A stretch of DNA of 64,000 nt from Thermodesulfobacteriota bacterium (lineage in GTDB: Bacteria > Desulfobacterota > GWC2-55-46 > JADFVP01), in contig JBHHUP010000001.1 in the NCBI GenBank assembly GCA_046753845.1, positions 13,343-77,342 of the forward strand, in the 5' to 3' direction. This document shows positions 14,441-61,383 of the stretch, in pieces (the first letter of the stretch is position 1; the number at the start of each line of letters is the position of its first letter). Below the pieces are notes generated by a model. That model was not told where the DNA came from, did not search any database, and saw only the letters and a list, made by a program, of their open reading frames with translations. The translations under genes were made by a program, and so were the position numbers.

Positions 14441-15316
14441 TTAATACCCGAATTCTCTAAGGCTCCGTTCGTTGCCTGTCCAGTCTTTTTTCACACGCAC
14501 AAAGAGTTCAAGGTAGACTTTTGCACCAAGAAACCTCTCAATCTCGCCCCTTGCCTGCGTGCCTATTTTTTTCAGCATGGCCCCCTGTTTGCCGATTATT
14601 ATCCCCTTCTGCGAGTCTCTCTCAACGTTTATAACGGCCCTTATGGAGATGACCTTGCGGCCTTCCTTGAACTCCTCTACCATTACCGCCGTTGAGTAGG
14701 GTATCTCCTGCCTTGTAAGCCTGAAGACCTTCTCGCGCACCATCTCCGATACCACAAAACGCTCGGGCTGGTCGGTGACCATATCCGCGGGGAAAAAAGG
14801 CGGTCCCTCCGGGAGCACTGCTTTTAAAAGACTTAAGAGCATCTCCAGCCCCTGCCCCTTAAGGGCTGATATGGGGAGGATTTCGTGAAAGGGATAGAGC
14901 GACTTGTAGCCCTCTATTACGGGAAGGATATCATCGCGCCTTATGGTATCTACCTTATTGGGACAGAGTATTACAGGGGCGCGCGTACTCTTCAATGCCT
15001 TTATTATGGAGATATCACCCCGGGCAGGCGGGACCGCCTCAACAAGGAGCACAAGGGCGTCTACGTCTTTTATGGAGTTCATGGCCTCGCGCAGCATAAA
15101 ACTCGATAAGGCCCCCCGGCCCTTGTGAATACCCGGGGTATCGAGAAAGACGATCTGTCCCTCCGTGATATTTTTAACGCCCTTGATGACATTACGTGTC
15201 GTCTGCGCCCGTTTTGAGACAATGGATATCTTCTCGCCGAGAAGGGCGTTAAGCAGTGTGGATTTACCTGTATTGGGCCGCCCTATTATGGAGACGAAGC
15301 CCGATGTAAAGGCCAT
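14441..15316 (-). CDS. era: GTPase Era
   Basis: 291 aa with GRPNTGKSTLLN and DTPG motifs and a KH domain at the C-terminus (VERDSQKGIIIGKQG). Confidence 0.9.
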   Translation of the reverse strand: MAFTSGFVSIIGRPNTGKSTLLNALLGEKISIVSKRAQTTRNVIKGVKNITEGQIVFLDTPGIHKGRGALSSFMLREAMNSIKDVDALVLLVEAVPPARGDISIIKALKSTRAPVILCPNKVDTIRRDDILPVIEGYKSLYPFHEILPISALKGQGLEMLLSLLKAVLPEGPPFFPADMVTDQPERFVVSEMVREKVFRLTRQEIPYSTAVMVEEFKEGRKVISIRAVINVERDSQKGIIIGKQGAMLKKIGTQARGEIERFLGAKVYLELFVRVKKDWTGNERSLREFGY

Positions 15317-15346: not shown

Positions 15347-16828
15347 TTAAAGAATATCATCAGAGACCTGCCCTGTCAAAGACGCAGGAGAGGAGCTCGG
15401 GGATTCACCCCGCGTTGCCGCTCTTCGCGAGTCCGGCCAGATGTTTGATATGACAAGGGCCGCGGCGAAATAGACAAGGGGGAGATAGGTAAGGGTATTT
15501 CTGTGTATTCCCGTCTCCTCCGTGACGGCGGTTATCTCAAGGGTAAGATAGATGAATAGAAACATGGATGATACGAGAAGGATAATCACGTAAAGATACT
15601 TTAACCTTGAGCTTATGATGGTTCGAAGAGCGATGAGGCTCGCTATTATCCAGAGCGGAAAGATAAGGTTGTAGTTTGCCGTAAAAAATATCTCCCTGAA
15701 AGCTATTCCCAGCACCTCCCAGTGCATGCCGCTGCTGACGGCATCGGGATCCAGGGGGTTGCTGCTAAACCATTGAAAGCCTGAAGAGGGGCCGCTGTGA
15801 CCGGAACCAATGCCGTGATGGTACTTAAAGAGCATCCATGGGCCGGCTATGATAATAAAGGGGAGAATAAAACCCGCCAGAGGGGCGATGAATGACCTTT
15901 TTCTCGTAAATAGATAGAGCACAAGGGCGGCCCCGCCGGCAAGAGCGAAGAAGATTCCCTCGTTTTTTACAAACATGGCCATGGCAAGAAATATCCCTCC
16001 GAGGACAAGGTAGGAGAGTAAGTCGTCCTTAAAAAACCTCCATAAGGCCACCGTGCCTGAGAGGGCGAAAAAACATAGCGGCAGATCGGCATAGGCGTCC
16101 TGGCCGTGTACGGTAAATATAGGCACACCAGCCATGAAAAAGACGGTGATAAGGGCGTAATATGACCCTGCCTCTCTCTTAACTCCGTAATAGAGCAAAC
16201 CGAGGACACCGGCAAAATAAAGGGGCCCCGGGGCCTTTACATATACCTCATGAAACAAACCAAGCACGAGGGCTATCCATGTCTGCAGGAGGGATAGATG
16301 CAGGGGATGGCCGATAAAGTACCTGTAGCCGCGACCTAAAAAGTGCTCATTTGAGGCATCAAGGAAGAGCCCGGCTTTGTAGTAAAAAAACTTGCCCGCG
16401 ATAGCCCAGTTAAGAAAACTATCATAAGAGAATACGGGACGTGTAAGGGACTCATAAAAGACAAAACCTGTCTTCGCCGCAACCCAGAGAACCATGATGA
16501 TGGTAAGGTAAAGCCTCAGCCCATGCAGACCCTGCCCCTTAGTACCGGGCATGGCAAGGCCACGGGCCTTTAGCCCGGTGCGGGCGAGGAAAAAAAAGAG
16601 GGCAGTAAAAACCGCAACAGGCAGTCCCGCTGTGACCACGGTAAAGGGCAGACCGAGAAGACCGAGTAAAAGCATCTCAAAGGCCGTAAAACCAAGACCC
16701 GCGCCTATGCCAAAAGTCACGGCCTCGAATATACTAAGCTCGGCGTCAGCGCGCAGCAGCCAACGTATAAAAAAGGTTCCGCCGGCAACAGGAAGCGCCA
16801 TGGAAAGTATAAGCAGGAATAACTCCAT
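15347..16828 (-). CDS. polytopic (~13 TM) membrane protein of unknown family, paralog of 18144..19550 (B2)
   Basis: 493 aa. It shares long identical blocks with B1: AGGTFFIRWLLR, FIGHPLHL, HGQDAYADLPLCF, FVKNEG, FTANYNLIFPLWIIA, GIHRNTLTYLP. A YDSFLNWA loop after TM4 is reminiscent of GT-C glycosyltransferases, but that is inference only. The start is 4 nt after the stop of the upstream partner. Confidence 0.6.
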   Translation of the reverse strand: MELFLLILSMALPVAGGTFFIRWLLRADAELSIFEAVTFGIGAGLGFTAFEMLLLGLLGLPFTVVTAGLPVAVFTALFFFLARTGLKARGLAMPGTKGQGLHGLRLYLTIIMVLWVAAKTGFVFYESLTRPVFSYDSFLNWAIAGKFFYYKAGLFLDASNEHFLGRGYRYFIGHPLHLSLLQTWIALVLGLFHEVYVKAPGPLYFAGVLGLLYYGVKREAGSYYALITVFFMAGVPIFTVHGQDAYADLPLCFFALSGTVALWRFFKDDLLSYLVLGGIFLAMAMFVKNEGIFFALAGGAALVLYLFTRKRSFIAPLAGFILPFIIIAGPWMLFKYHHGIGSGHSGPSSGFQWFSSNPLDPDAVSSGMHWEVLGIAFREIFFTANYNLIFPLWIIASLIALRTIISSRLKYLYVIILLVSSMFLFIYLTLEITAVTEETGIHRNTLTYLPLVYFAAALVISNIWPDSRRAATRGESPSSSPASLTGQVSDDIL

Positions 16829-16832
16829 AATC

Positions 16833-17969
16833 TTATTTAATCACCTCGTAGATCGCAGCGTTAACGGCATATTTCGCAAAGACCCTCACCCTCGGGGCTA
16901 TGAGTTTTCCCTTAACGTCATAGAGCGCGCCGGTAACGGGATCAAGGCGAAGGGACTCGCCGTATGACCAGAGAAGATCGGCCTCGCGGGAGGTCTCAGT
17001 AGGCAGGAGATAATATCTCGCTATAATGGCCAAGGCGTTTTTATATCCTATGCCTGCCGGACGAAGAGACCTGCCCGGGGGCACAACGCCCCTGGCGAAC
17101 TCGATAAAATCAAAAAAACTATCGAAATCTCTATTGTACACAATGTCTATTCTCTCTCCCACGTCCGCACCGGAAAAAACCTTCACATCATCGCGCCATA
17201 TGTTCAGCCAGTTATAATCCATCCTCACGATAAAGATGCCCCCTGTTAGAATAGCGATCATAATAAAGACCCTTGATGCCCTCCGCGGTAAAAAACGCTG
17301 CCCTGAGTATCTTACAAATAAAAAGGCGGCCGCAAATGCCACTGCCGCAAGGACGTAGAGCATAGTTATAAAACCAATGCCCCCAACTGAAGGCGTGGTG
17401 ACAAAACCCACAGTTGCCCCGGTGATAAAATCAGGCTTCCAGAACTCTCCCCAGAGCATGGAGGCAACCCCCATGGCCCCGGGTTCATATAGACGCAGGC
17501 TATCGAGGCGCACCTTCATTGTCTCCTGTGTGTAAAACTCTACGACAAAGTCATTTATATAGTTCTCTGCCCCCTCAAGCTTTCCAAAATAAAGAGAGAG
17601 GTCTGTAGCCTCATCACTACCGTCAAGGACCTGCACCTTTACGACCTTATGGATTACCCTGCCATGGGCGTCCTTGAGGCTGATCTTGGCAAGAAGGCTC
17701 TTGGGGGCCTTAAAGCTAAGCTCCATGGCCAGACGCCGAAGCGGCGCAGTAAAACCCGCAGGAGGGCTTATAGTCACATAGTTATTACCTTTTAAAAAGA
17801 GTCCGCCATCGGTAAAAAAGGCCTCATCAACGTGCTCGAAACGCCACCCTGCAACTGCCGCGGCGTTATTGAAGGCGTAGCCGAAGTCTGCCCCATATGC
17901 CGCCGCCGGCAAGAGAGAGAAGAGGCTCATCAGGAAAAAAAGAACCGATATGGAAGTTACTGGTCTCAT
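16833..17969 (-). CDS. signal-peptide protein with two periplasmic domains and a central TM hairpin, unknown family, paralog of 19555..20706 (A2)
   Basis: 378 aa. The signal peptide ends LLPAAAYGA. It shares blocks with A1: LKGNNYVTISPPAGFTAPL, RMDYNWLNIWRDDVK, and C-terminal LIAPRVRVFAKYAVNAAIYEVIK. Confidence 0.6.
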   Translation of the reverse strand: MRPVTSISVLFFLMSLFSLLPAAAYGADFGYAFNNAAAVAGWRFEHVDEAFFTDGGLFLKGNNYVTISPPAGFTAPLRRLAMELSFKAPKSLLAKISLKDAHGRVIHKVVKVQVLDGSDEATDLSLYFGKLEGAENYINDFVVEFYTQETMKVRLDSLRLYEPGAMGVASMLWGEFWKPDFITGATVGFVTTPSVGGIGFITMLYVLAAVAFAAAFLFVRYSGQRFLPRRASRVFIMIAILTGGIFIVRMDYNWLNIWRDDVKVFSGADVGERIDIVYNRDFDSFFDFIEFARGVVPPGRSLRPAGIGYKNALAIIARYYLLPTETSREADLLWSYGESLRLDPVTGALYDVKGKLIAPRVRVFAKYAVNAAIYEVIK

Positions 17970-18067
17970 AGACTTAATCGCGGGTTACCCCTGTAACCAG
18001 TGGAGATAAGCGGATAAGGAGAAAAGAAGGCCCCCTAAGGAGCTGGTCTTTATGAAAAATTTTTTTT

Positions 18068-18096
18068 AGTATAACACCGGCCATCCCCACTGTCAA
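18068..18096 (-). promoter_or_regulatory. sigma-70-type promoter for the second A/B module
   Basis: Minus strand TTGACA (18096-91), a 17-nt spacer, then TATACT (18073-68). It lies in the 174-bp gap between B1 and A2. Confidence 0.5.
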
Positions 18097-18143
18097 AAAA
18101 CTTCATAAGGCATGGAAGGGGAGACGGGTAAAGGGGGCGGAGG

Positions 18144-19550
18144 CTATGATTCACAGCCCTTATCGGGCCAGACCCTTGATAAGGCAAGGGCAGCGGCAAA
18201 ATACACAATGGGAAGATAGGTAAGGGTATTTCTGTGAATACCAGTCTGCTCCGTAACGGCCGTGACCTCCAGCGTAAGGTAAACAAAGGTGAACATGGAG
18301 ACAAGAAAGAGAATCATCAAATAAAGATACTTGAGCTCGGTTTTAATAATGGTACGAAGAGCGGTGATACCGGCGATTATCCATAGAGGGAAGATTAGAT
18401 TGTAATTGGCAGTAAAGAATGTGTACCTGAAAGCGAGCGAGAGGACCTCCCAGTGTACGCCGTAACCTGCCTTGCCGGAATAAAAGGGGTCGCTGAACCA
18501 TTTTAACCCTGAAGATGCGCCGCTATGCCCGAAACCAATGCCGTAATAATATTTAAAGAGCAGCCATGGCCCGGCGATAAGGATAAAGGGCATAATAAAA
18601 CCTGCCAGAGGGGTGATAAATGACCTTTTTCTCATAAATAGATAGAGTAGGAGGACGGCTCCGGCGGCAGCGGCGAAAAAGAGGCCCTCGTTCTTTACGA
18701 AGATGGCCATGGCAAAAAATATCCCCGAGAGGACAAGATAGGGTTGTGAATCGCCTCGAAAAAATCTCCATAGGGCCACCGTGCCAAGAAGGGCATAAAA
18801 ACACAGGGGCAGATCAGCATAGGCGTCCTGGCCGTGGGCCGTAAATATCGGTGCCGTTGAGATGAAAAAGGCGGTAAGAAGGGCGTAAAATGGCCCGGCC
18901 TCTCTCTTAACGCCGCAGTAGAGCACAGCGATAACCCCGAAAAAATAAAGGGCCCCCGGGGCCTTGATATAGAGCTCGTGAAAGCGGCCTATGGCAAGGG
19001 ATATCCATGTCTGCAGGAGGGGCAGATGCAGGGGATGGCCGATAAAAAACCTGTAGCCGCGTCCGAAAAAGTGCTCCTTAGAGGTATCAAGGAAGAGTCC
19101 GGCCTTGTAGAAAAAAAACTTGCCCGAGACGGCCCAGTTAATAAAGCTGTCAACAGAGTCAAGGGGGCGGACAAGGGACTCGTAAAAGACAAAACCCGTC
19201 TTTGCCGCAATCCACAGGGCCATGACGATTGCAAGGTAAAGCCTCCACCCCCGAAGTTCGTAGCCCTTAAGAGAGGCGGCTGCGGGGGAGCCTTTACCCG
19301 CGCGGGAGAGGACGAAGAAGATAAGGGTAAAACCCGCGATCGGCAGCCCCGCCGAGACCAATGTAAAGGGGACTCGGAAGAGGCCGAGTATAAACATCAG
19401 AGAGGCCGTAAAACCAAGGCCCAGCCCCATGCCGAATACAAGGGCCTCCGCAGACCCCAGAGCGGCATCAGAGCGAAGGAGCCAGCGGATAAAAAAAGTC
19501 CCGCCGGCTATAGGGAGAGTCATGGACAGGATAAGGTAGATAAACTCCAT
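18144..19550 (-). CDS. polytopic membrane protein, paralog of 15347..16828 (B1)
   Basis: 468 aa. See B2 for the shared blocks. The ATG lies 4 nt after the A1 stop. Confidence 0.6.
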   Translation of the reverse strand: MEFIYLILSMTLPIAGGTFFIRWLLRSDAALGSAEALVFGMGLGLGFTASLMFILGLFRVPFTLVSAGLPIAGFTLIFFVLSRAGKGSPAAASLKGYELRGWRLYLAIVMALWIAAKTGFVFYESLVRPLDSVDSFINWAVSGKFFFYKAGLFLDTSKEHFFGRGYRFFIGHPLHLPLLQTWISLAIGRFHELYIKAPGALYFFGVIAVLYCGVKREAGPFYALLTAFFISTAPIFTAHGQDAYADLPLCFYALLGTVALWRFFRGDSQPYLVLSGIFFAMAIFVKNEGLFFAAAAGAVLLLYLFMRKRSFITPLAGFIMPFILIAGPWLLFKYYYGIGFGHSGASSGLKWFSDPFYSGKAGYGVHWEVLSLAFRYTFFTANYNLIFPLWIIAGITALRTIIKTELKYLYLMILFLVSMFTFVYLTLEVTAVTEQTGIHRNTLTYLPIVYFAAALALSRVWPDKGCES

Positions 19551-19554
19551 GGCC

Positions 19555-20706
19555 TTATTTAATCACCTCGTATATGGCCGCGTTCTCGGCGTATGCGGCA
19601 AAGAGCCTCACTCTCGGCGCTATGAGCTTTCCACGGCCGTCATAAAGCGCGCCTGAGCCGGGGTCAAGGCGAAGGGACTCGCCGAAGGACCAGAGAAGGT
19701 CGGCCTCGCCGGATTCCTCAAGGGGGAGCATATAGTACCGCGCAAGGGCCGCCAAAGGCGTATCCAGGCCCAAGACGGCCGGACGCAGCACCCTGCCCTC
19801 GGGGACGGTTCTCTTTACGAACTCGATAAAATCAAAGAATTTATCAAAGTTCCTGTTGTTGACAATACGTGTCCTCTCTCTCAGGTCCTTGCCGGCAAGG
19901 GTCTTTACGTGGTCTCTCCAGACAATGGCCCAGCCGTAGTCCATCCTGAAGGCAAAAACAAAAGCGGCTGCAAGAAATATTATAACAAGAACTCTTGAAA
20001 TCGCGCGCAAAGTAAAAGACCTTCCCGCTGCTCTGTAAGAGGCCGTAACAACAAGAAAGGCAAGGGCCGCCAGGACATAAAGCATGGTCATAAAACCAAC
20101 TCGCCCTGCCTGTGGTGTAGCCACAAAACCCAGTATGGAGCCCGTAATAAAATCAGGTCTCCAGAACTCCTCCCATAATACGGAGGCAAGCCCCAGACTC
20201 GTCGGCTCATAAAGACGAAGGTTATAAAGAACGACATTGATGTTCTCAAGGCTGTAAAATTCTACTACAAAGTTATTGATGGGTGCCCCTGACGCGCCGC
20301 CAGCGTGCCTGCCGAAATATACTCGCAGATGCGTCTCATCATCACTGCCGTCAAGGACCTTCACCCTTACTGTCTTACGGGCCTCCCAGCCGTCGGAGGC
20401 ACCTATCCTGATATTGGATACCATGCTTTTTGTGGTCTTGAACCTTAGCTCCATGACCACACGGGAAAGCGGCGCGCTGAACCCGGCAGGCGGGGATATC
20501 CTCACATAGTTATTGCCTTTCAGCAAAAGTCCGCCTCCGGTAAGAGAGACCTCGTTCACATGCTCGATATGCCACCTCGATACGGCCTCATAGGTATTAA
20601 AGACAAAGCCGTCCCCCTGGCCATGAACCGACGGAGGCGTGACAATAAAGATACTCAAGAGAAAAAAAAGGAAAGATATGGAGGCGGTATGAGCGGCCCG
20701 GTTCAT
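19555..20706 (-). CDS. signal-peptide / TM-hairpin protein, paralog of 16833..17969 (A1)
   Basis: The track ORF starts at TTG 20820. The paralog alignment and the signal peptide (MNRAAHTASISFLFFLLSIFIVTPPSVHG) favour ATG 20706. Confidence 0.55.
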   Translation of the reverse strand: MNRAAHTASISFLFFLLSIFIVTPPSVHGQGDGFVFNTYEAVSRWHIEHVNEVSLTGGGLLLKGNNYVRISPPAGFSAPLSRVVMELRFKTTKSMVSNIRIGASDGWEARKTVRVKVLDGSDDETHLRVYFGRHAGGASGAPINNFVVEFYSLENINVVLYNLRLYEPTSLGLASVLWEEFWRPDFITGSILGFVATPQAGRVGFMTMLYVLAALAFLVVTASYRAAGRSFTLRAISRVLVIIFLAAAFVFAFRMDYGWAIVWRDHVKTLAGKDLRERTRIVNNRNFDKFFDFIEFVKRTVPEGRVLRPAVLGLDTPLAALARYYMLPLEESGEADLLWSFGESLRLDPGSGALYDGRGKLIAPRVRLFAAYAENAAIYEVIK

Positions 20707-20879
20707 ATGCCCTTTACCGGCTGAAGCATATAAGGCCTCTCTGATGGAGGCAGAGAAATAATACAAGGATTCTGCCCACCGCAAAGACCGCGGCAGAGAC
20801 AATACTGAGAGTGATGGCAATTATGCAAGAGAGAGTTTTTTTTCATGGCCCCCCATATATTAAGATGTCTAAAAAATAT

Positions 20880-20909
20880 ATTTTAAGACATAAAAAGGCG
20901 GCCTGTCAA
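20880..20909 (-). promoter_or_regulatory. sigma-70-type promoter for the first A/B module
   Basis: Minus strand TTGACA (20909-04), an 18-nt spacer, then TAAAAT (20885-80). It overlaps an imperfect palindrome atgtct...agacat (20864-20890). Confidence 0.45.
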
Positions 20910-20980: not shown

Positions 20981-22231
20981 CTACTGACTCATGGAACGGA
21001 AGAACTCCTTGTTGCTCTCGGTATTTTTTATCTTGTTAAGGAGAAACTCCATGCTGTCAATGGGGTTAAGGGGCTGCAGGACTTTTCTAAGTATCCATAT
21101 CCTGTTAAGCTCGGCCTTGGTAAGGAGAAGGTCCTCTTTTCTCGTACCGGACTTATTGATGTCTATGGCAGGGAAGATCCTTCTCTCGGCGAGCTTTCTG
21201 TCAAGGACGATTTCCATATTACCGGTGCCCTTGAACTCCTCGAAGATAACCTCGTCCATACGCGAGCCTGTGTCCACAAGGGCCGTGGCTATGATGGTAA
21301 GGCTGCCGCCCTCCTCGATGTTTCTGGCGGCTCCGAAGAACCTCTTTGGCTTATGCAGGGCGTTAGAGTCCACTCCTCCTGAGAGAACCTTGCCGCTCGC
21401 GGGCACAACGGTATTATAGGCCCGGGCAAGACGCGTTATGGAGTCAAGGAGTATTACCACGTCCTTCTGATGCTCAACAAGCCTCTTGGCCTTCTCTATG
21501 ACCATCTCCGAGACCTGCACATGACGCTGCGCGGGCTCATCAAATGTACTGCTTATAACCTCTCCGTTTACGGAGCGCTCCATATCCGTTACCTCCTCGG
21601 GCCTCTCGTCTATAAGGAGGACAAGGAGTATGACATCGGGATGGTTGGTTGTAATGGAGTTAGCGACCTTTTGCAGAAATATTGTCTTACCTGCCCTCGG
21701 CGGCGAGACGATAAGGGCCCTCTGGCCCTTTCCAAGGGGGGTGAATATGTCCATGATCCTCATAGAGAGGTCAGGGTCGTTCTCTGTCTCAAGGTGAAGC
21801 TTCTCTTCGGGGTATAATGGTGTGAGGTTATCAAATAATATCTTTTCTCTGGCTATCTCCGGGTCTTCGTAGTTTACCTTCTCTACTTTAAGAAGAGCAA
21901 AGTATCTCTCGCCCTCTTTGGGGGGCCGTATCTGGCCTGAGACGATATCGCCTGTGCGCAGATTGAACCTTCTTATCTGCGATGGCGATACGTATATATC
22001 ATCGGGGCCGGGAAGGTAATTATAATCCGGGGCCCGTAGAAAACCGAAACCATCAGGCAGGGTCTCAAGGACTCCTTCGCCGAAGATAAGGCCGTTTTTC
22101 TCACTCTGGTTCTGCAGAAGGGCGAAGATAAGGTCCTGTTTCCTCATACTTGAGGCGCCTTCTATCTTATACTTTCTGGCAAGCGCGGTGAGGTCGTTTA
22201 TCTTTTTGTCCTTTAAATCTCTTAAATGCAT
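20981..22231 (-). CDS. rho: transcription termination factor Rho
   Basis: 416 aa with an N-terminal Rho_N region ([26 protein letters not shown]), an RNA-binding cold-shock-like domain, and Walker A PPRAGKT. Confidence 0.95.
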
Positions 22232-27914: not shown

Positions 27915-28610
27915 TTGAACCCAACGGCATTAAGCTCCCAATTAGGGCTCTGGGGCATGATCGCGCATGCCGGGCCCATAGTAAAACTCGTGCTCCTCGT
28001 ACTGCTCATATTCTCCGTGGTCTCCTGGGCCATCATCGTCTACAAACTCATGCTCATTAAGAAGATAGAAAAAGAGACCACGGCTTTTTACGAGGTCTTC
28101 TGGGAAAAGAGGCAATTTTCTCACATAGCCTCCGTAGCCGGCTCATACAGAAACACGCCCCTTGCGCCTCTATTTACTGCTGTCTATAACGAGCTCGCCA
28201 ATATCATGAAGGCCCCGGACGAGGATAAGGGCGCGATGCGTCACGATAATATAGACCGCATTGAGCGCCTGCTGAAAAAGACAAGCTCAGTTCAGGGCAC
28301 GAAGATGGAGTACGCCGTAAGCTTTCTTGCTACGGCCGGCAACACGGCCCCTTTCATAGGCCTCTTCGGCACGGTCTGGGGCATAATGAGCTCATTTCAG
28401 GACATCGGCGCCAGCGGGGCCGCCAACCTTGCCGTCGTGGCCCCTGGAATCTCCGAGGCCCTTGTGGCAACTGCCATGGGCCTTATCGTAGCCATACCCG
28501 CCGTAGTGGGATATAACCACATCATCGCAAAGATAAACCGTGTTTCAACGGAGATGGACAATTTTTCGTCAGACCTCCTGAACATCGTAGAAAAACAGCT
28601 CTCCCGTTAA
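27915..28610 (+). CDS. tolQ: Tol-Pal system protein TolQ (MotA/TolQ/ExbB proton channel)
   Basis: 231 aa with a TTG start and GAGGAGG 11 nt upstream. The conserved motif is TAPFIGLFGTVWGIM...GISEALVATAMGL. Confidence 0.85.
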   Translation: MNPTALSSQLGLWGMIAHAGPIVKLVLLVLLIFSVVSWAIIVYKLMLIKKIEKETTAFYEVFWEKRQFSHIASVAGSYRNTPLAPLFTAVYNELANIMKAPDEDKGAMRHDNIDRIERLLKKTSSVQGTKMEYAVSFLATAGNTAPFIGLFGTVWGIMSSFQDIGASGAANLAVVAPGISEALVATAMGLIVAIPAVVGYNHIIAKINRVSTEMDNFSSDLLNIVEKQLSR

Positions 28611-28636
28611 AGGGGGCAGGTTTTAAGCAGCAATCA

Positions 28637-28930
28637 ATGGCCCCTGCGTATAAGCCTTTCATTGCCAGAGAGATAGGGCGCTAACGTTAAAAAGGGGGCA
28701 AGTCTCAGATAAGAATGCAGGGCCCTTGCGTAAAAGCTGTAATTACCGCGTAGATAGGGCGCTCCCGTAAAAAAAAAGACTCTAAAGGCACATAAGTCAC
28801 GGCATCTCTCTAAGAGATGAGGTATCGTCATGGTAACCAGAGAGCGTTAACAAACAAGGCCAATTTCAGCAGCAACAAGACGCACCCCCATAGGCGCATG
28901 TAAGCACGAAGGGGCTTGGCGGATACATTA
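28637..28930. repeat. degenerate ~82-bp direct repeats filling the tolQ-tolR spacer
   Basis: Copy 1 starts at 28639: ggcccctgcgtataagcc...ccagagagatagggcgctaacgttaaaaa. Copy 2 starts at 28721: ggcccttgcgtaaaagct...ccgcgtagatagggcgctcccgtaaaaaa. Two weaker copies follow (ggcacataagtcac...ccagagagcgttaac and ggcgcatgtaagcac). Confidence 0.6.
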
Positions 28931-28958
28931 AAAGATTACAGAATTGAGATAGATTTTT

Positions 28959-29375
28959 ATGGCTATGAACGGACACTCCGATAGAAAGCTGATGTCGCAG
29001 ATAAACGTAACGCCCTTTGTAGACGTTATGCTCGTTCTGCTCATAATATTCATGGTAACGGCGCCCATGATGCAGTCTGGCATTGATGTAAATCTGCCAA
29101 AGGTCACTGCCAGCGCCGTTAACACCAAGTCTGACCCCCTTATAGTAACCATAGACAGCAGGCAGCGTACGTACCTCGGTGATAAACGCTTCACCTCGGC
29201 ACGCCTCGGCAAGAAGCTAAAGGCCATAAACAAGATAAAACCAGGGAGCATGGTACTTCTAAAGGCCGATAAGAAGGTACCTTACGGATACGTTGTAAAG
29301 GTCATAGGAGAGATACGGAAATCGGGCATCACCAAGATAGGCATGATTACCGAATCATCCTCTAAAAGAAGATAA
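28959..29375 (+). CDS. tolR: Tol-Pal system protein TolR (ExbD/TolR family)
   Basis: 138 aa. INVTPFVDVMLVLLIIFMV is the canonical TM segment with the conserved Asp. Confidence 0.8.
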   Translation: MAMNGHSDRKLMSQINVTPFVDVMLVLLIIFMVTAPMMQSGIDVNLPKVTASAVNTKSDPLIVTIDSRQRTYLGDKRFTSARLGKKLKAINKIKPGSMVLLKADKKVPYGYVVKVIGEIRKSGITKIGMITESSSKRR

Positions 29376-29455
29376 ACCCGCAAAGGCATTGTAGCTATAG
29401 AGTACGTCCCATAAAAGACCTTTCCAAAAACCGTCCCTGGTCTTTAAAAAAACAC

Positions 29456-30262
29456 ATGGATAATTTGTTCGGCCATACCCCCAAGGTCTTTAAAAAAATC
29501 CTCTACTTCTCCATAGCGGCGCATATTATCGCCCTTGGCTCCCTGGGTTTTTTCATGGACAGCTCCAAAAAACTCTTCTTCACCCCCGTATACACGGTAA
29601 GTCTTGTGGAGCCCGTGAGGAGCCATAGAAAAACAAGGGCAAAAAAAGTCGTCAGGCGCACCGTTAAGAAGAAAAAGGCCGTAAAAAAGCACATTACCAA
29701 GAAAAAAGCGGTAATAGTAAAGAAAAAGGCGGTAAAGAAGACCAAAACACATGAAAAAGAACTCTCAACAGCTATAAGTAAGATCCGCGAGAAGGTTAAA
29801 GAGAGTGAGGAGCAGCAGCTTATAGCAAAAAAGATAGCGGCCATAAAGGAAAGAGAGGCCGCAGAGGAGAGGGCAAGGCGTCTGGCTAAAATTCGAGGTT
29901 CCATAAAGGCCGCCCCGGCAGAGAAGGCCCCACCACCCGCCGCCTCATCAGGCGGTCTTAGAAGCGATAGCCTGGAGATAAAATTCAAGGCATACTTCTC
30001 GCTTATAAGGGACCACGTACAGAATAACTGGATAGTCCCCGAGCGCTTTGACAATGAAAAGGTCTCTGTTATAGTATCAATACGTATCCGTAAAGATGGC
30101 ACACTCATCAAGAGCTGGGTAGAAAAAGGCTCGGGGAGCAGGCAGTTTGACGACTCCCTCTTAAAGGCCGTGCAGAAGGCATCGCCCTTTCCGCCTCTAC
30201 CTCAGGACTTCACTGAAGACGTACTGGAGACAGGCCTGAGGTTCTGCCCTCGCTGTGATTAA
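29456..30262 (+). CDS. tolA: TolA-like energy transducer (TonB C-terminal fold)
   Basis: An N-terminal TM helix, a Lys/Ala/Glu-rich linker, and a C-terminal TonB_C-like domain (SGSRQFDDSLLKAVQKASPFPPLP). Its position between tolR and tolB supports the call. Confidence 0.65.
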   Translation: MDNLFGHTPKVFKKILYFSIAAHIIALGSLGFFMDSSKKLFFTPVYTVSLVEPVRSHRKTRAKKVVRRTVKKKKAVKKHITKKKAVIVKKKAVKKTKTHEKELSTAISKIREKVKESEEQQLIAKKIAAIKEREAAEERARRLAKIRGSIKAAPAEKAPPPAASSGGLRSDSLEIKFKAYFSLIRDHVQNNWIVPERFDNEKVSVIVSIRIRKDGTLIKSWVEKGSGSRQFDDSLLKAVQKASPFPPLPQDFTEDVLETGLRFCPRCD

Positions 30263-30265
30263 GAT

Positions 30266-31594
30266 ATGAGATTTTTTATAATATACGCCTTATTAGCCTT
30301 ATGTGCAGGCCTTACCTCAGGGCCGGCAGCGGCAAAGGTCTATATTGATCTTGCGGCCCCCTCCATCAAGAGGCTCCCCCTTGCCGTTCAGGAGTTCCGT
30401 TACCTTGGCCCTGACCCCTACTCCGATGTGGAGAGAGAAAATATCCGGGCAACAGGCGGGGCCATGCTTAATACCCTTAAAAAAGACATGGAATTCTCGG
30501 GGGTTTTCAGGGTTCTGCCAAACGATGCCTTTATCGAAGGCCCCGAGGAAGCCGCCTTTGATATTAACGCTATAAACTTCAAGGGCTGGCGGATGATAGG
30601 GGCTGACGCCGTTGTGGAGGGCAGGTTCAGGCTGAGGGAAAAGAGGCTTATCGTAGAGGTAAGGCTCTTTGACAGCATACGCCACACCATGATAATGAGT
30701 AAACGTTTCATCGGCAACGCGGCCCGCCCTGAGCGGCTCGCGCATTTTATCTCTGAGCGGATCTATGAGGAAATAACAGGGCGAAGAGGCATATTTACGA
30801 CAAAACTGCTCTTTGTCTCAAAAAAAACAGGTAATAAAGAGATATATCTATCAGATTATGATGGCCGGCACAGAGTAGCCATTACCTCTAACCGGTCCAT
30901 AAACCTCTCGCCAAGGTGGTCTCCCGACGGGGCGAAGATGATTTACACCTCCTATAAGAGGGGTTACCCATACCTCTATCTCTTTGATATCAAGACCGGT
31001 CATGACGAGGTGCTCTCCAGCAAACGGGGTATTAACATAGGGGGCAGGTTCTCTCCTGATGGTAAAAGCATAGCCTTGACGCTAAGCACAAAATCAAGCC
31101 CCGATCTATTCCTCTTAAAACTCGGCGGCGGCGGTTACGAGCGCCTTACCAGCAACTACGGTATAGATGTCTCTCCCACGTGGAGTCCCGACGGTAAAAA
31201 GATAGCCTTTGTCTCAGATAGAAGTGGAAATCCGCATATCTTTGTGTTAGACTTGCGAACCAACAAGACTAAACGCCTGAGCTACGGCGGCACATATAAC
31301 GCAAGCCCCGTATGGTCCCCTGACGGCACAAAGATAGCCTTTTCGCGTGCCGATGGAGGCAGCTTCAATATCTGGGTCGTAAACTCCGAGGGAGGCAGAC
31401 AGGTTCAGCTTACCTATGAGGGAGATAATAAATCCCCTTCCTGGTCACCGGACGGAAGGTTCATAATCTTCACACGAAGCTACAAAGGCGCCGGGTCTCT
31501 TTACGTCATGCAGGCCGACGGCACAGCACAGAGAAAGCTTCCAACAGGCGCAGGCGATGTGAGCTCACCATCGTGGTCGCCATTTCTGCATTAA
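30266..31594 (+). CDS. tolB: Tol-Pal system beta-propeller protein TolB
   Basis: 442 aa with a signal peptide and repeated SP.WSPDG blades: PRWSPDGAKM, PTWSPDGKKI, PVWSPDGTKI, PSWSPDGRFI. Confidence 0.9.
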   Translation: MRFFIIYALLALCAGLTSGPAAAKVYIDLAAPSIKRLPLAVQEFRYLGPDPYSDVERENIRATGGAMLNTLKKDMEFSGVFRVLPNDAFIEGPEEAAFDINAINFKGWRMIGADAVVEGRFRLREKRLIVEVRLFDSIRHTMIMSKRFIGNAARPERLAHFISERIYEEITGRRGIFTTKLLFVSKKTGNKEIYLSDYDGRHRVAITSNRSINLSPRWSPDGAKMIYTSYKRGYPYLYLFDIKTGHDEVLSSKRGINIGGRFSPDGKSIALTLSTKSSPDLFLLKLGGGGYERLTSNYGIDVSPTWSPDGKKIAFVSDRSGNPHIFVLDLRTNKTKRLSYGGTYNASPVWSPDGTKIAFSRADGGSFNIWVVNSEGGRQVQLTYEGDNKSPSWSPDGRFIIFTRSYKGAGSLYVMQADGTAQRKLPTGAGDVSSPSWSPFLH

Positions 31595-31650
31595 CTCTTG
31601 ACACCATGATAAATACAACCATCTTATTGTAACAACTCAAGGAGGCCTCA

Positions 31651-32229
31651 ATGAAAAGATTCTTTAAATTCATGCCAATCTTACTCATTTGCCTATCCCT
31701 TGCGGCATGCGCGGGAAAGACCAAGGTAACTGAAGACGCTTCCATGACCTCCGGGGCCGATAACGCCACGATGGTCCCTGATGAAAAGGGTCTTGGCGAG
31801 GCCGGTGTAGAGGAGTCCAATATGCCTGGAGACAAGTTCCGTGAGGCCTTTGTCTCCGCAGAAGACAGAGAGGCGGCAACAGCGGCGGCCGTAAAAGCAG
31901 GGCTTAAGGTCGTGCACTTTGATTTTGACAGATACACCATACGGGACAGCGACCTTGAGCTACTGCAGGCCGATGCCCAGTGGTTAAAAGACCACCCCGA
32001 TGTATATATACGCATAGAGGGACACGCCGATGAGCGCGGCGAGTCTGAGTACAATATGGCCCTTGGCGAAAAAAGGGCCATGAGCGTAAAACGCTACTTT
32101 GAGTCACTCGGTGTATCGGACAAGAGGTTATCCATCATCAGCTACGGCGAAGAGAGTCCCGCGATTGATGCTCATAACGAAGAGGCCTGGGCAGCTAACA
32201 GGCGTGTTGAGTTCGAGAAACTCAAATAA
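31651..32229 (+). CDS. pal: peptidoglycan-associated lipoprotein Pal (OmpA-like)
   Basis: Lipobox LSLAAC and an OmpA_C domain (VHFDFDRYTIR...GHADERGESEYNMALGEKRA...NRRVEF). Confidence 0.9.
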   Translation: MKRFFKFMPILLICLSLAACAGKTKVTEDASMTSGADNATMVPDEKGLGEAGVEESNMPGDKFREAFVSAEDREAATAAAVKAGLKVVHFDFDRYTIRDSDLELLQADAQWLKDHPDVYIRIEGHADERGESEYNMALGEKRAMSVKRYFESLGVSDKRLSIISYGEESPAIDAHNEEAWAANRRVEFEKLK

Positions 32230-32258
32230 GACCTTAAACCGCCTGAAAGGTACTGTAT

Positions 32259-33278
32259 ATGAAGATTTTTAAAGAGGCCCGCGGCCTCATGAGGTGGCGC
32301 GGGCTTATGGCGATGCCCGTACTTGCATTGCTTATCTATGGATGCGGGCCGGGTTTTCCCATTGTCACTGAAGAGCAGCAGGACTTCATGGACAAGGCCG
32401 ATAAGGCCTCCAAGGATACGGCCTCTCTGAACAGGCGTATCACCACCCTTGAGAACAGAGGCGCTGACAAAGAAGGCGTGGAGGAGATGAAACTACGCCT
32501 TGCCGATACCACAAAGGCCGTAGAAGATCTCAGCAGAGAATTCTCTTTTGCACGAGGCAGCATGGAAGAGGCCGGCAACGCACAGGCCCAGGCCAGCAGC
32601 GAGATAGCCGCCCTTGATGAGGCAATGCGCGGTCTGAATGAACGAATCCGCTCCCTTGAGGCCGCAAAAGCCGGCAACGCGGCGGAGCTATTAAAGTTAA
32701 AGACAGCACTTGGGGCCTCGGCGAAGAAGATAACCGTCCTTGAGAATCAGTTAGCCCTCTTGCGGGGAACCATTCAGAGCCCTACTGCCGGTGCGCCCGC
32801 ACCCTCGGCTGCTACAGGCGAAGCAGCGGCTGCCATAAAAAACAACCACGATAAAGCGGCGATAAAGGCCGCGCAGGCCGCGGCAAAGGGGCAGAAAAAA
32901 AACGACCCCGAGGCCCTTTACTTTAAAGGATTTAAACTCACAAAGGACGGAGAGTTTGAGAAGGCCCGCGCCGTATTCAAGTCATTTCTCAGCCTCTACC
33001 CCAGAAGCCGCCTCGCAGACCACGCCAGGTACTGGCTCGGAGAGATATACTACTCAAAGGGCAACTGGGAAAGGGCCATCCTTGAGTTTGACAGGGTAAT
33101 AAAAGAGTACCCCGGAGGAGACAAAGTCCCTGCGGCTATCCTTAAGGAAGGATTTGCCTTTGACCGGCTGGGCTCAAAGAAAGAGGCCCGTCTGCTCCTT
33201 GAGAGAGTTATAAAAAAATACCCCGATACCCCTGAGGCGAAGATGGCAAAAGAACGCCTTCTGAAGATAAAGGAATAA
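32259..33278 (+). CDS. cpoB: cell-division coordinator CpoB (YbgF)
   Basis: A lipoprotein-like N-terminus, a coiled-coil middle, and a C-terminal TPR region (YWLGEIYYSKGNWERAILEFDRVIKEYP). It is the last gene of the tol-pal cluster. Confidence 0.8.
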   Translation: MKIFKEARGLMRWRGLMAMPVLALLIYGCGPGFPIVTEEQQDFMDKADKASKDTASLNRRITTLENRGADKEGVEEMKLRLADTTKAVEDLSREFSFARGSMEEAGNAQAQASSEIAALDEAMRGLNERIRSLEAAKAGNAAELLKLKTALGASAKKITVLENQLALLRGTIQSPTAGAPAPSAATGEAAAAIKNNHDKAAIKAAQAAAKGQKKNDPEALYFKGFKLTKDGEFEKARAVFKSFLSLYPRSRLADHARYWLGEIYYSKGNWERAILEFDRVIKEYPGGDKVPAAILKEGFAFDRLGSKKEARLLLERVIKKYPDTPEAKMAKERLLKIKE

Positions 33279-33316
33279 CCCGCCCGGTACGTATCAGCAA
33301 GCAGGCTTTTTCATCG

Positions 33317-33354
33317 CCCCCTCCCAGGATTAAAGGTGGGGGTTTTGTTTTCTT
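33317..33354 (+). terminator. putative intrinsic terminator after cpoB
   Basis: ccccctcc (33317-24) pairs with ggtggggg (33335-42) with one mismatch, followed by ttttgttttctt. Confidence 0.45.
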
Positions 33355-33581
33355 CCTCAAGGGATGCCCGTATCCGCTCCCTGAAGAGGCTCTGAATGAA
33401 GACCTTACCGGACCTGACTACCCATCCATTTCTCCCTGATATTAAGGAGACAGGCTATAGCACCTGAATACTTATATACAGAAAACCTCTTTTTAATGTA
33501 GGAATTTTATAATCACATACTAAAGTCATGGCCACGAGCCCTGTCTTTTAATGTATAATAAAAGTAGAAGTAAGGCTATTT

Positions 33582-34718
33582 ATGAGAGAGACTATATCGC
33601 TTAAGAAATGCTCGGGATACGACCCCGATGAGGTCATGGAGAAGGTCACCGAGGCGCTTGAACTCCTTGGCGGAGTTAGCCGCTTTGTGAGCCCCGGTGA
33701 ACGTATACTTATTAAGCCGAATCTACTCACAGCCAAACCCGTTGACGCTGCCGTTACAACGCACCCTTCTCTTGTGCGGGCCCTTATAAGACTCGTTCAA
33801 AAAGCAGGCGGCACGCCCTTTGTAGGTGACAGCCCGGCCATAGGCACCGCGCAAAAAGTGGCCGAGAGATGCGAGATACTTGATGTATGCGAGGCCGAAG
33901 GCGTGGAGTTTACGGGCTTTGACGAGGCCGTTGTGGTAGATAACCCAGAGGGGCATATCTTCAAGCGCCTTGAGGTGGCGCGCGCCGCCATTAGTGCTGA
34001 CGGCATCATCAACGTGGCAAAGCTCAAGACACACGCCCAGATGCTCCTTACCATGGGCGTAAAGAACATCTTCGGCTGTGTTCCCGGCAAGAGAAAACCT
34101 CAGTGGCATCTAAGCGCAGGTGTGGACACCTCGCACTTTGCCAATATGATACTCGACCTTTATCTCTTCATAAAACCACGCCTTACTGTCATGGACGCCG
34201 TTATCGCCATGGAAGGCAACGGGCCTGCAAGCGGGGAGCCCAGAACAGTCGGGCTTATCGCCGCAGGAGAAGACGCCCTTGGTGTTGACGCTCTATGCGC
34301 CCGTATCCTTGGCGTAGAGGCTGAAGAAGTACCCATTCTCGCGGCAGCGATAGAACGCGGACTAAGGGGGGCAAGACTTAACTCAGCAAAGATTCTCGGC
34401 GATGCCCCTGAGCTCTTTACAGTAAAAAACTTTAAGCTCCCGCCGCTTGTCCACACAAGGTTTACCGAGGGTCTACCTTCTTTTCTCGGCAAAGGTCTCA
34501 GAAAATCACTCACAGCAAGACCGCACATAATTCACTCTAAGTGCACACACTGTGATTTATGCGTAGGCGTATGCCCGGCGCGGATAATGACAAGCGCCTC
34601 CCGGATAAAGATCGACTACGACAAGTGTATACGGTGCTTTTGCTGCCAGGAGATGTGTCCCAACGAGGCCATAACATCAAAATCCGGATTTTTAAAGAAG
34701 ATAATACCGGGGCTGTAG
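33582..34718 (+). CDS. DUF362-domain protein with C-terminal 2x[4Fe-4S] ferredoxin domain
   Basis: 378 aa with a DUF362-like N-terminus (GERILIKPNLL) and two C..C..C...CP clusters: CTHCDLCVGVCP and CIRCFCCQEMCP. Confidence 0.65.
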   Translation: MRETISLKKCSGYDPDEVMEKVTEALELLGGVSRFVSPGERILIKPNLLTAKPVDAAVTTHPSLVRALIRLVQKAGGTPFVGDSPAIGTAQKVAERCEILDVCEAEGVEFTGFDEAVVVDNPEGHIFKRLEVARAAISADGIINVAKLKTHAQMLLTMGVKNIFGCVPGKRKPQWHLSAGVDTSHFANMILDLYLFIKPRLTVMDAVIAMEGNGPASGEPRTVGLIAAGEDALGVDALCARILGVEAEEVPILAAAIERGLRGARLNSAKILGDAPELFTVKNFKLPPLVHTRFTEGLPSFLGKGLRKSLTARPHIIHSKCTHCDLCVGVCPARIMTSASRIKIDYDKCIRCFCCQEMCPNEAITSKSGFLKKIIPGL

Positions 34719-34776
34719 CAGCCTCTTAAACCGGCCTTGCGGAGCCTCTCTAACAAGAAGACCGCCGGAGCATATC

Positions 34777-37700: not shown

Positions 37701-38193
37701 GAAGTTTCCTGTCATCAGCAAGATTTTCTCCATAGTAAATATAATTTCCATAGATGAGCTATTTAAAAAAGGACTTCCTTACAAGAGCCTTAAGGCTGAC
37801 GTAAATATTACGGATGGAATTTTCTCAACTGATAACCTGCTATTTGAGAGCGACTCCATGAAGATGAGCGCCGTCATGGATATAGACAGCACAAAAAGCA
37901 CAATCAACGCCACATTAGGCGTTCACCCCTTTGTAACCATAGATAAACTTGTCACAAGTATACCCCTTGTAGGATGGATAATGGGAGGAGATGAAAAAAG
38001 TTCCCTTAGCCTCTATTACAATATAAATGGGCCTCTTACAAAACCGGATGTAGAGCCTGCTATGATAAAAAATATGCAAAAAGGCATTTTGGGCAAGCTG
38101 GAGCGCCTTATTACATCGCCCATAAAAATAATTCAAGAGAGCAATGATATGATCAACCACAAAGATAAGGGAGGGAATAACGGTGGCAGATAA
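34777..38193 (+). CDS. YhdP/AsmA-like large envelope protein
   Basis: 1138 aa with a GTG start and a single N-terminal TM helix, then a long beta-rich body. The C-terminal region (ISKIFSIVNIISIDELFKKGLPYKSLKADVNITDGIFSTDNLLFESDSMKMSA...) fits the YhdP/AsmA_2 C-terminal pattern as I recall it. Confidence 0.6.
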   Translation: MSIFRPRKKTCLTIFIICLVIIAAGAFFLWRVPLDISQYHDRITTSLEDITGGSITTGKVTLRILPAPYIEVHDIKMNLDDGEFLRSRLMKFRVSILPFFRKKVVLQKVVMQGWSLNIRRDRDGAMALRKMYERIIKRKHIISVQDLRLLAGELFLEDKAKGRDLRLKAQLNNGTARLSDYGLSFQADLSLEDGANLYTRGSARKEGEKIGLRGQVTISDLSVSTLTSYIKTPAVKGSVSGDLAFSLGDIIELRGPVNYKNITLNLPSLRKAPVDSPSGKAYLDLKLADDYLKLQAKKAELAIEDFVLSGSMDLGGAPSKTDDMALTFNLKCTPIPLKDVKAHVLNKILTKKLSWINDFTPTGGAVRIENFTLGATVKELRDGKAFSLPGAMRLDAEFVDIGLRHTLLKEDIGGLKGKLTLTDNSINFHDISSKLGRGYVEKLSYRMNDLHSTKKAASYDLSILGHMDAGRAIAMTIRVFRDSGKSAKKQLRRIAATGETRIKFNLKGKIDVKDSTWFSVNLGLHGATFRYKGFPLSFTSMNGNIDVDSHRFTFTDLILRDSAASNLRIEGYVRDYTLKNPYFHLNTEGRVFNGTLSAFTEKTALDEIIMDETLLFHSTIVGLKKSLKVNAGVDLGKAGLEYRKLLKKSSSIPLAMDAEFIVKDKTIDIKKASISTAASSIDINGYLSRGKGPYSLFINSKKLRLYDLADLTPLIIKKADTAGLLKVILKVSKKPGDKRPAYKGLISVKNAAFSSPVIKEPIKTFELSMNFDDDKAKLNIPELKFGESDIYGSLDINSISKTGITFNLSSNMLETNDIWGDGEDDGLKAWLLKMRSLGIIKKKDTSKRATLSGSGKISIAKGRIFDEEIRDFKAVTLFRPETISLDPIVFLTEGGTVTGTTVFYRADKSPELFEASAEISGIHLKDALDRLGATKEMLTGTLYGDIKIRCARGEAHFTRCLNGNGFFKAERGRMWKFPVISKIFSIVNIISIDELFKKGLPYKSLKADVNITDGIFSTDNLLFESDSMKMSAVMDIDSTKSTINATLGVHPFVTIDKLVTSIPLVGWIMGGDEKSSLSLYYNINGPLTKPDVEPAMIKNMQKGILGKLERLITSPIKIIQESNDMINHKDKGGNNGGR

Positions 38194-47677: not shown

Positions 47678-47780
47678 AAACTTTAAAGACCTGCCGGAGG
47701 GTAATAAACCGTAACAAATTAAAGGCCCCGCAAGAGAAACTCTCCGGAGAAGACTCATATGTTATTCGGCATTTTCCCAC

Positions 47781-47811
47781 AAAAAAAACCGGCCACGGAA
47801 AGGCCGGTTAA
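47781..47811 (-). terminator. intrinsic terminator (expression platform of the Moco riboswitch)
   Basis: The minus-strand RNA is AACCGGCC-UUUCCGU-GGCCGGUU followed by U8. Confidence 0.7.
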
Positions 47812-47925: not shown

Positions 47926-47945
47926 AATATTTAATTTTCAGATAA

Positions 47946-58848: not shown

Positions 58849-58914
58849 ATGCCGTTTTTCATCCAAAGCGATACTTATTCCCCTACCACCGGTGAATAAG
58901 CCCAAGTCAAATAT

Positions 58915-59071: not shown

Positions 59072-59083
59072 TAATTTAAAGCA

Positions 59084-61372: not shown

Positions 61373-61383
61373 ATTTACAATAA

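Follow-up and report, generated by a model that had tools for sequence, protein, structure and literature searches.

A duplicated gene pair between rho and era in a Thermodesulfobacteriota genome is a candidate two-subunit GT-C glycosyltransferase

Introduction

Glycosyltransferases of the GT-C type build or decorate many envelope glycans, and how the small ones, which carry no soluble domain, recognise their acceptors is an unresolved question. A separate acceptor-binding partner for such enzymes was speculated upon, as an open question, in the 2021 review by Rismondo et al. (PMC8035078). Here we describe a module of four minus-strand open reading frames (ORFs) located between rho and era in a 64,000-nucleotide (nt) stretch of DNA (hereafter the window) from a Thermodesulfobacteriota metagenome-assembled genome (MAG). 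An earlier reading of the letters alone (the original prediction) had taken these ORFs for two diverged copies of one gene pair, A1-B1 and A2-B2, and both the coordinates and the paralogy alignments agree with it. We think it reasonably probable that each A-B pair is a two-subunit periplasmic glycosyltransferase, with B as the catalytic and A as an auxiliary acceptor-recognition subunit, and the pair is put forward as a testable candidate for a split GT-C enzyme with a separate acceptor-binding partner.

The closest described arrangements each share part of this organisation. Gtr-type three-component systems consist of a GT2 synthase, a flippase and a GT-C enzyme (PMC11127046, PMC8035078). The module is predicted to resemble them in that a polytopic GT-C performs the final step, using a catalytic Asp in the first loop and a sugar carried on a lipid phosphate. 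However, Gtr-type systems have no A-like component, whereas the constant partner of the GT-C here is a periplasmic protein with two transmembrane (TM) helices, and synthase and flippase genes are unlinked to the pair among the window ORFs scanned and in close relatives. In EmbA/B/C, AftD and the GT136 enzyme ORF12, a GT-C core is combined with a periplasmic jelly-roll domain of the carbohydrate-binding module (CBM) type (PMC11127046; PMC3044687), and a CBM fused to a GT-C enzyme in cis serves for acceptor binding (PMC11127046). Unlike in those proteins, to which the module has no sequence relationship, its CBM-like domain lies on a separate polypeptide with a membrane hairpin of its own, and elsewhere in the family this domain is absent or replaced by tetratricopeptide repeats (TPR).

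A solved heterodimer of a GT-C enzyme and an auxiliary subunit is provided by Gpi14-Pbn1 (GPI-MT-I; PIG-M/PIG-X), in which the beta-rich extracytoplasmic domain of Pbn1 contacts Gpi14 (PMC12653191). There, as in the module, a GT-C of about 430-470 amino acids (aa) without a soluble domain is accompanied by a membrane-anchored auxiliary subunit of about 400 aa; the 1:1 complex is solved for GPI-MT-I and proposed for A and B. One lobe of the auxiliary subunit is also optional between species, which can be compared with the beta-sandwich of A. GPI-MT-I is eukaryotic, however, Pbn1 has one C-terminal TM helix where A has a hairpin, and no sequence similarity of Pbn1 to A was detected. Lastly, ArnT (GT83) and protein O-mannosyltransferases (PMT, GT39) share with B the clan, the Pfam family PMT_2, the overall membrane fold and the Asp of external loop 1, but B lacks their C-terminal periplasmic or MIR domain, has a single Asp (D-S) rather than D-E, and would carry three extra N-terminal helices.

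Results and discussion

Layout and divergence of the duplicated module

The module is flanked by rho (20981-22231) and era (14441-15316), and comprises the following features.

A1: 19555-20706, minus strand; 383 aa, putative auxiliary subunit, copy 1, with signal peptide, CBM-like beta-sandwich, TM hairpin and C-terminal domain; A-family hidden Markov model (HMM) score 451 bits
A1 motif RMDYGW: 19930-19947, minus strand; within the TM hairpin
B1: 18144-19550, minus strand; 468 aa, predicted GT-C-fold glycosyltransferase, copy 1
B1 motifs, minus strand: DSFINWA 19131-19151 (Asp134), FVKNEG 18684-18701, HRNTL 18222-18236
A2: 16833-17969, minus strand; 378 aa, putative auxiliary subunit, copy 2
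A2 parts, minus strand: signal peptide 17892-17969, beta-sandwich 17481-17891, TM hairpin 17214-17375, RMDYNW motif 17208-17225, C-terminal domain 16836-17123
B2: 15347-16828, minus strand; 493 aa, predicted GT-C fold, copy 2; B-family HMM score 699 bits
B2 motifs, minus strand: DSFLNWA 16403-16423 (Asp136), FVKNEG 15956-15973

A1 and A2 are 57% identical over 375 aa (E-value 2e-143) and B1 and B2 69% identical over 467 aa, and the shared peptide motifs from which paralogy had been proposed were all recovered in these alignments. The DNA itself aligns as direct repeats with a period of 2,722-2,731 nt and 72-80% identity; one of these (16741-17021 against 19463-19743, 78% identical) contains the shorter alignment noted before (16832-16990 against 19554-19712). 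At the A-to-B junction both copies read GAGGTGATTAAATAA followed by 4 nt and ATG, matching the spacing given in the original prediction. Synonymous divergence (dS) between the copies was 0.8-1.2, and the ratio of nonsynonymous to synonymous divergence (dN/dS) was 0.25-0.26 for A and B gene types alike. The duplication is thus old and, because dN/dS is this low, both copies are considered functional and kept under purifying selection. A evolves faster than B, and identity between A1 and A2 differs by part (beta-sandwich 53%, hairpin 46%, C-terminal domain 72%).

A2 corresponds to NCBI entry MFQ5479671.1 ('hypothetical protein ACE5DW_00145', from a Thermodesulfobacteriota MAG). The start of A1 is ambiguous, since the ORF can be extended to a TTG at 20820 (19555-20820, minus strand), through a cstA relic described below, although alignment of homologues favours the ATG at 20706 that gives 383 aa. 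Among the NCBI gene models (P0007 and P0021), that of A1 (367 aa) begins within the signal peptide, and that of B1 has 459 aa against 468 aa for the ORF.

B is a predicted GT-C glycosyltransferase

The original prediction had called both proteins unassignable, which did not stand for B. Both copies pass the Pfam PMT_2 model (PF13231; 35.3 bits for B1 and 34.1 bits for B2, gathering cut-off 26.1), and most B relatives carry a precomputed PMT_2 annotation. The structure predicted from a 48-sequence alignment (predicted local distance difference test (pLDDT) 85.3, predicted template modelling score (pTM) 0.90) has 12-13 TM helices and no soluble domain, in line with the roughly 13 helices first proposed, and its last TM helix spans residues 437-460 of 468. 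When this predicted structure was compared with the PDB using Foldseek, the best 31 matches were all GT-C enzymes, including AglB, ALG9, Pmt4, Pmt1/2, STT3, PglB, EmbA/B and AftA (best E-value 4.6e-4, TM-scores 0.36-0.49). By sequence profile and predicted fold, B is accordingly placed in the GT-C clan, as had been suspected from its loop motif.

That motif, VDSFINWA in B1 and YDSFLNWA in B2, was also borne out by conservation. The loop after TM helix 102-127, assigned to the periplasm by its charge distribution, carries a helix (residues 133-149) opened by D134 (D136 in B2). This Asp was invariant in all 48 sequences of the alignment and in 27/27 B-family sequences, including relatives with about 25-30% identity, and is followed by Ser, Thr or Ala across the family (D-S, D-T or D-A). 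At least the first loop Asp is shared by all GT-C templates considered (ArnT D55, Pmt1 D77, EmbA D281, TMTC D52; PMC7801869). D134 lies 38 residues ahead of position 1 of the PMT_2 profile, compared with 39 for the catalytic DD of TMTC1 (PMC7801869), with which it would be equivalent. K286 (in FVKNEG) and R440 (in HRNTL) are likewise kept in 27/27 B-family sequences. In TMTC the donor phosphate is bound by the Lys of a K-E motif (KET) (PMC7801869), and hhalign places the TMTC-like 'LTKE' over 'VKNE' of B, albeit in a weak match (35% probability). Another basic residue that serves to bind the donor phosphate in GT-C enzymes is an Arg ahead of a late TM helix. Three extra N-terminal helices appear to precede the canonical TM1 in B, judging from the model.

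B and its relatives carry the NCBI name 'ArnT family glycosyltransferase', a label that is most likely generic. Searches of NCBIfam gave no B match at E <= 1 beyond one noise match (0.64), searches against all PDB chains with single sequence and profile returned nothing meaningful, and B has neither a MIR match in Pfam nor a large soluble loop. ArnT was not among the 50 best fold matches of B. We therefore rejected B as an orthologue of ArnT or PMT, given the absence of NCBIfam and PDB sequence matches, of a C-terminal periplasmic or MIR domain, and the D-S motif.

A defines a family with a constant core and a variable N-terminal module

For A, the description as unassignable held. Neither Pfam nor NCBIfam gave a match, searches of all PDB chains with single sequence and profile returned nothing meaningful, and in Pfam ten distant relatives and the members of odd length were equally without a match except to TPR repeats. 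Full-text literature searches found no paper on the A-B pair or the A family. In the predicted structure (overall pLDDT 72, with both soluble domains at 80-90), a signal peptide that looks cleavable precedes a beta-sandwich at residues 27-163. An amphipathic segment (W-x-x-F-W) comes next, then a hairpin of two helices, and the chain closes with an alpha/beta C-terminal domain of about 100 aa. The architecture first proposed was thus recovered, by the model and by hydropathy analysis, in its signal peptide, beta domain, two TM helices with a K/R-rich loop, and C-terminal domain, except that the beta domain has about 140 aa and not about 190. Both soluble domains are placed in the periplasm because the cytoplasmic hairpin loop is rich in basic residues (five K/R and no D/E in A2; three K/R and no acidic residue in A1).

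Foldseek matched the beta-sandwich to jelly rolls of CBM6/11/27/35/61 and of a porphyran-binding CBM (E-values 7e-7 to 2e-4), with target TM-scores of up to 0.68; no CBM sequence family in Pfam or NCBIfam was matched. The N-terminal domain of A is accordingly CBM-like in its predicted fold. An exhaustive profile search of 1.84 billion proteins grouped the family into 160 clusters at 50% identity, about 60 of them full-length. Many others are short (about 210 aa; 211-243 aa) and start at W-x-x-F-W, hence without the beta-sandwich, and in P0182 and P0184, each a single-member cluster, the A core instead follows TPR repeats. Conservation peaks at the periplasmic end of TM2 (R249, M250, D251, Y252, W254 and D261), where the hairpin ends in RMDYNW (RMDYGW in A1), and extends through the C-terminal domain (R273, P297, G299, Y319, L322, P323, S327, W334, D343 and L349). 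As the hairpin end and the C-terminal domain hold most of the family-wide conservation, we regard these as the constant core of A and the N-terminal module as variable. T192-P193, just before TM1 in a low-confidence, Thr/Ser-rich segment, is also nearly invariant.

One fusion protein extends this variability. P0184 (locus L023, 6001-9465) joins a polytopic domain of about 420 aa to TPR repeats and the A core, and is followed by a B-family gene. The DD, YRP and TKE motifs of its membrane domain resemble those of TMTC-type GT-C enzymes (compared with PMC7801869), and it is on this motif resemblance that we call the domain TMTC-like. It had no match in Pfam or the PDB, and hhalign against the B family gave a probability of 35%.

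A and B are linked and amplified as a unit

HMMs of the A and B families were run on all fetched loci (numbered with the prefix L). Every A gene with downstream sequence (26/26, from 22 distinct loci and the window) had a B-family gene directly behind it, the two lying a few nt apart or overlapping, and this applied to CBM-type, short, TPR-fused and distant forms of A. Adjacency beyond this genome had been set beforehand as a test on which the original prediction could fail, and it was kept throughout. A is 45-60% identical in close relatives; in pairs from 'Deltaproteobacteria' MAGs, A is 24-32% and B 41-44% identical. Among Nitrospirota (L020-L022), A is full-length or short and B follows, and the same order is seen with the fusion P0184 in L023 (B 368 bits) and with a very distant A in L024 (A 127 bits, B 160 bits). 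The lone exception concerns the converse: in L018 (6452-7882), a diverged B-family gene (122 bits) has no A ahead of it but an unrelated 163-aa ORF, and sits upstream of a regular A-B pair.

Copy number varied from one pair in most loci to two in the window, L012, L013 and L017, and three in L004, with A and B amplified always as a unit. In trees, the two pairs of the window fall into one group, which also takes in the pairs from the single-copy loci L008 and L009. Separate sets of orthologues are formed by the copies in L004, L012 and L013, and the duplication in L017 was an event of its own; these separate groupings indicate that tandem amplification of the pair recurred. Distance matrices of A and B were correlated (r = 0.96). 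Linkage of A and B is therefore strict and the two are co-duplicated, obligate partners.

The family appears narrowly distributed. A genome scan found it in 15/185,579 species representatives, all uncultured MAGs of Thermodesulfobacteriota, 'Deltaproteobacteria' or Nitrospirota. This figure is a lower bound, as the scan was pattern-based, and it used the closer A alignment, the broad 68-sequence alignment being too divergent.

Genomic context and a possible lipid-linked donor

In Thermodesulfobacteriota relatives the pair occupies the same slot, in the order GntR-RluD-YfiH-CoaE-rho-(cstA)-(A-B)n-era-der-brkB-ftsH. In more distant lineages (the L005-L007 context) a TatD/radical-SAM gene lies upstream, and the pair precedes era, or ftsH directly. 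Where the pair is found away from this housekeeping slot (L020, L023 and L024), it has glycan genes around it. In L020, two TMTC-like genes encoding membrane and TPR regions are followed by a fusion of GtrA_DPMS_TM and GT2, one TPR gene, A and B. The best NCBIfam similarities of this GT2 were AglJ, PpgS, ArnC and dolichyl-phosphate hexose transferase, all below equivalog cut-offs. A GT2 gene also lies near the pair in L022 and L024, the latter in the order methyltransferase, GT2, Ugd, epimerase/dehydratase, A, B, a second PMT_2 GT-C, more epimerases and an NTP-transferase. In L023 the order is epimerase, methyltransferase, HAD, ATP-grasp, XrtA-type polysaccharide deacetylase, the fusion P0184 and B. 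The dependence on polyprenyl-phosphate sugars proposed from the window gains contextual support from the GtrA-GT2 fusion beside the Nitrospirota pair in L020.

The window also encodes, on the plus strand (27915-38193), TolQ-like, TonB/TolA-like, TolB and CpoB-like TPR proteins and, behind them, a DUF362/4Fe-4S protein and a YhdP/AsmA-like protein of 1,138 aa. From the Tol-Pal cluster and the YhdP/AsmA-like protein we conclude that the organism is diderm.

Proposed mechanism and alternative readings

In the two-subunit enzyme that we propose, B would take a sugar from a polyprenyl-phosphate-linked donor at the outer leaflet of the inner membrane, using the invariant Asp with which the first periplasmic-loop helix opens, while the Lys of FVKNEG and the Arg of HRNTL would bind the donor phosphate. 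The hairpin and C-terminal domain of A (R249-M-D251-Y-N-W254 and D261, at the periplasmic membrane boundary) would dock on B and may complete the substrate site, with the R/D/W/D cluster predicted to lie at the level of the GT-C active site. The N-terminal module, optional and swappable across the family, would capture the acceptor. As this module is CBM-like in the window, the acceptor is probably a glycan, and most likely an envelope glycan of a diderm. Tandem pairs would then be maintained paralogues that differ in acceptor or linkage specificity, and independent amplification in several lineages would supply natural specificity variants (A1B1 versus A2B2). Complex formation between A and B, the lipid-linked donor, the nature of the acceptor and a catalytic share of A are what we infer; the broader proposal of a periplasm-facing, GT-C-like envelope-modification module that was duplicated and has diverged draws support from profile, fold, motif and adjacency.

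Several observations weigh against this mechanism. The fold matches of B have modest TM-scores, as given above, and the whole-chain Foldseek search gave no fold match for the C-terminal domain of A, being dominated by matches to the beta-sandwich. The CBM-like jelly roll is a generic fold, and A falls outside all CBM sequence families. Because short forms of A lack the beta-sandwich altogether, the core role of A must be something other than acceptor capture, and in some lineages the fusion to TPR gives a hint that proteins, not glycans, are the acceptors. The correlation between A and B distances mostly mirrors shared species history. Lastly, no polyprenyl-phosphate sugar synthase (GT2) or flippase was found among the window ORFs scanned, which were part of the total, and no GT2 synthase or GtrA-type flippase is linked to the pair in the loci of close relatives.

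B could be a protein O-glycosyltransferase of the PMT/TMTC type, with A as an adaptor that presents periplasmic or outer-membrane proteins, which we judge unlikely. The PMT_2 match and the presence of Pmt4 and Pmt1/2 among the best fold matches are consistent with such an activity, as are the fusion of the A core to TPR repeats, typical protein-binding modules, in P0182 and P0184, and the TMTC-like membrane and TPR genes that accompany the pair in L020 and L021. However, the domain appended to A in the window and in close relatives is CBM-like and not TPR, B has no MIR domain and shows D-S in place of the D-E/D-D of PMT/TMTC, and distant pairs lie in clusters of the polysaccharide type (Ugd, epimerases, polysaccharide deacetylase). 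Alternatively, A might itself be the dedicated acceptor of B, glycosylated for example at the T-P before TM1. An enzyme and its dedicated target would be just as likely to show strict adjacency, and T192-P193 in its Thr/Ser-rich juxtamembrane segment is the type of site used by O-mannosyltransferases. Even so, the strongest conservation, in the charged and aromatic residues R249, D251, W254 and D261 at the membrane boundary and in the C-terminal domain, resembles a functional or interaction site more than a passive target, and pairing is kept when A is cut to its hairpin and C-terminal domain or fused to other modules; we consider this reading improbable, and the roles of subunit and substrate can in any case coexist.

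The remaining alternatives deny A any part in the activity of B. One would have B as an ArnT orthologue that adds aminoarabinose to lipid A, with A as an unrelated neighbour, in keeping with the NCBI name and with a diderm host that carries Tol-Pal and a YhdP-like protein. Yet no NCBIfam ArnT model was matched at E <= 1 and no PDB sequence match was obtained, ArnT does not figure in the 50 best fold matches, B ends without a C-terminal periplasmic domain, there are no arn genes among the window ORFs scanned, and the strict linkage to A would be left unexplained. On models, fold matches, domain content and gene context we rejected this reading as very improbable. The other holds that A and B are independent genes that stay adjacent through vertical inheritance of a housekeeping neighbourhood. 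Synteny of rho...era-der-brkB-ftsH is kept in Thermodesulfobacteriota, so that adjacency within this clade is weak evidence, but the pair is intact in changed neighbourhoods (L005-L007, Nitrospirota L020-L022 and the glycan clusters of L023 and L024), is duplicated only as a unit, and has start and stop codons 4 nt apart or overlapping. With adjacency at 26/26 across these changed neighbourhoods, chance neighbourhood is scarcely credible and was likewise rejected.

Returning to the two-subunit enzyme, what is new is the A family, which comprises about 160 clusters at 50% identity without a Pfam or NCBIfam model and is here given a working role, together with its obligate, modular and repeatedly amplified partnership with B; B itself is an assignable, if distant, GT-C. 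A bolder extension, which we offer tentatively as possible rather than probable, is that A represents an unrecognised class of obligate bacterial GT-C partner. R249, D251, W254 and D261 and the C-terminal domain would then form part of a composite active or substrate site with B, and the choice of acceptor would be set by an exchangeable N-terminal module, be it CBM-like, TPR or even an entire TMTC-like GT-C. The position before era and the recurrent one- to three-fold amplification would, on this extension, reflect a lineage-specific envelope glycan that is essential and that the paralogous pairs build or decorate step by step.

Promoters, a cstA relic and the era junction

The original prediction had given each pair a TTGACA promoter of its own. 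Both sites are present, each matching 11/12 consensus positions, but only the first is broadly conserved in relatives. The regulatory and relic features are as follows.

Post-rho promoter (sigma-70-type) TTGACAGGCCGCCTTTTTATGTCTTAAAAT: 20880-20909, minus strand; TTGACA-18-TAAAAT, 11/12 consensus
cstA 5' relic: 20762-20845, minus strand; in the rho-A1 spacer, within the A1 5' leader
B1-A2 spacer promoter-like site: 18068-18096, minus strand; TTGACA-17-TATACT with TG, 11/12 consensus
era promoter CTTTGACAGG...CTGATGATATTCTTTAA: 15351-15379, minus strand; 10/12 consensus with TG, in the last ~10 codons of B2

The 30-mer behind rho is near-identical at the same place in L009, L012, L008, L001, L015 and L004, and is therefore more than a chance match; it is thus common to seven genomes whose proteins share only about 50-60% identity. 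In the window it probably drives A1-B1. In L009 and L012 it precedes an intact 644-aa cstA (identified in L009 from Pfam), with no further promoter-like site before A. The rho-A1 spacer of the window retains a 5' relic of this gene, with 81% nt identity over 47 nt to cstA of L009; its translation, KKTLSCIIAITLSIVSAAVFAV, shows 64-68% identity to the N-terminus of CstA in L009 and L012. From these alignments the post-rho promoter is taken to be ancestral and to have first served the now-deleted cstA. As only the cstA 5' relic is left, A1-B1 would now be the first unit behind the ancestral promoter. In L008 the relic is joined in frame to A (P0002, 495 aa).

The spacer site at 18096-18068 is not broadly conserved: a similar TTGACA occurs in the first inter-pair spacer of L004 and is missing from L012. 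A weak terminator-like hairpin (5-bp stem and T-run) was noted at 18030-18043 (minus strand) in the putative A2 leader; the count of such hairpins in the region was not above the shuffled expectation.

B2 ends 30 nt before era, as first reported. The era promoter, in the form CTTTGACAGG...TGATGATATTCT, is kept in L001, L004, L009, L011, L012 and L015, with a variant in L006, L007 and L018. Its position inside the end of B2 explains the longer C-terminal tail of that protein (...LTGQVSDDIL*), which is predicted to be doubly constrained, by coding and by the promoter. Because era has a conserved promoter of its own, read-through should not be needed and co-transcription with the module is not implied.

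Other features of the window

Further along the window, two cobalamin riboswitches were found on the minus strand at 58904-59087 (126.8 bits) and 61169-61377 (66.7 bits). A molybdenum cofactor (Moco)/tungsten riboswitch (47804-47933, minus strand, 69.4 bits) lies upstream of an operon for a solute-binding protein and ABC transporter (46910-47758 and downstream).

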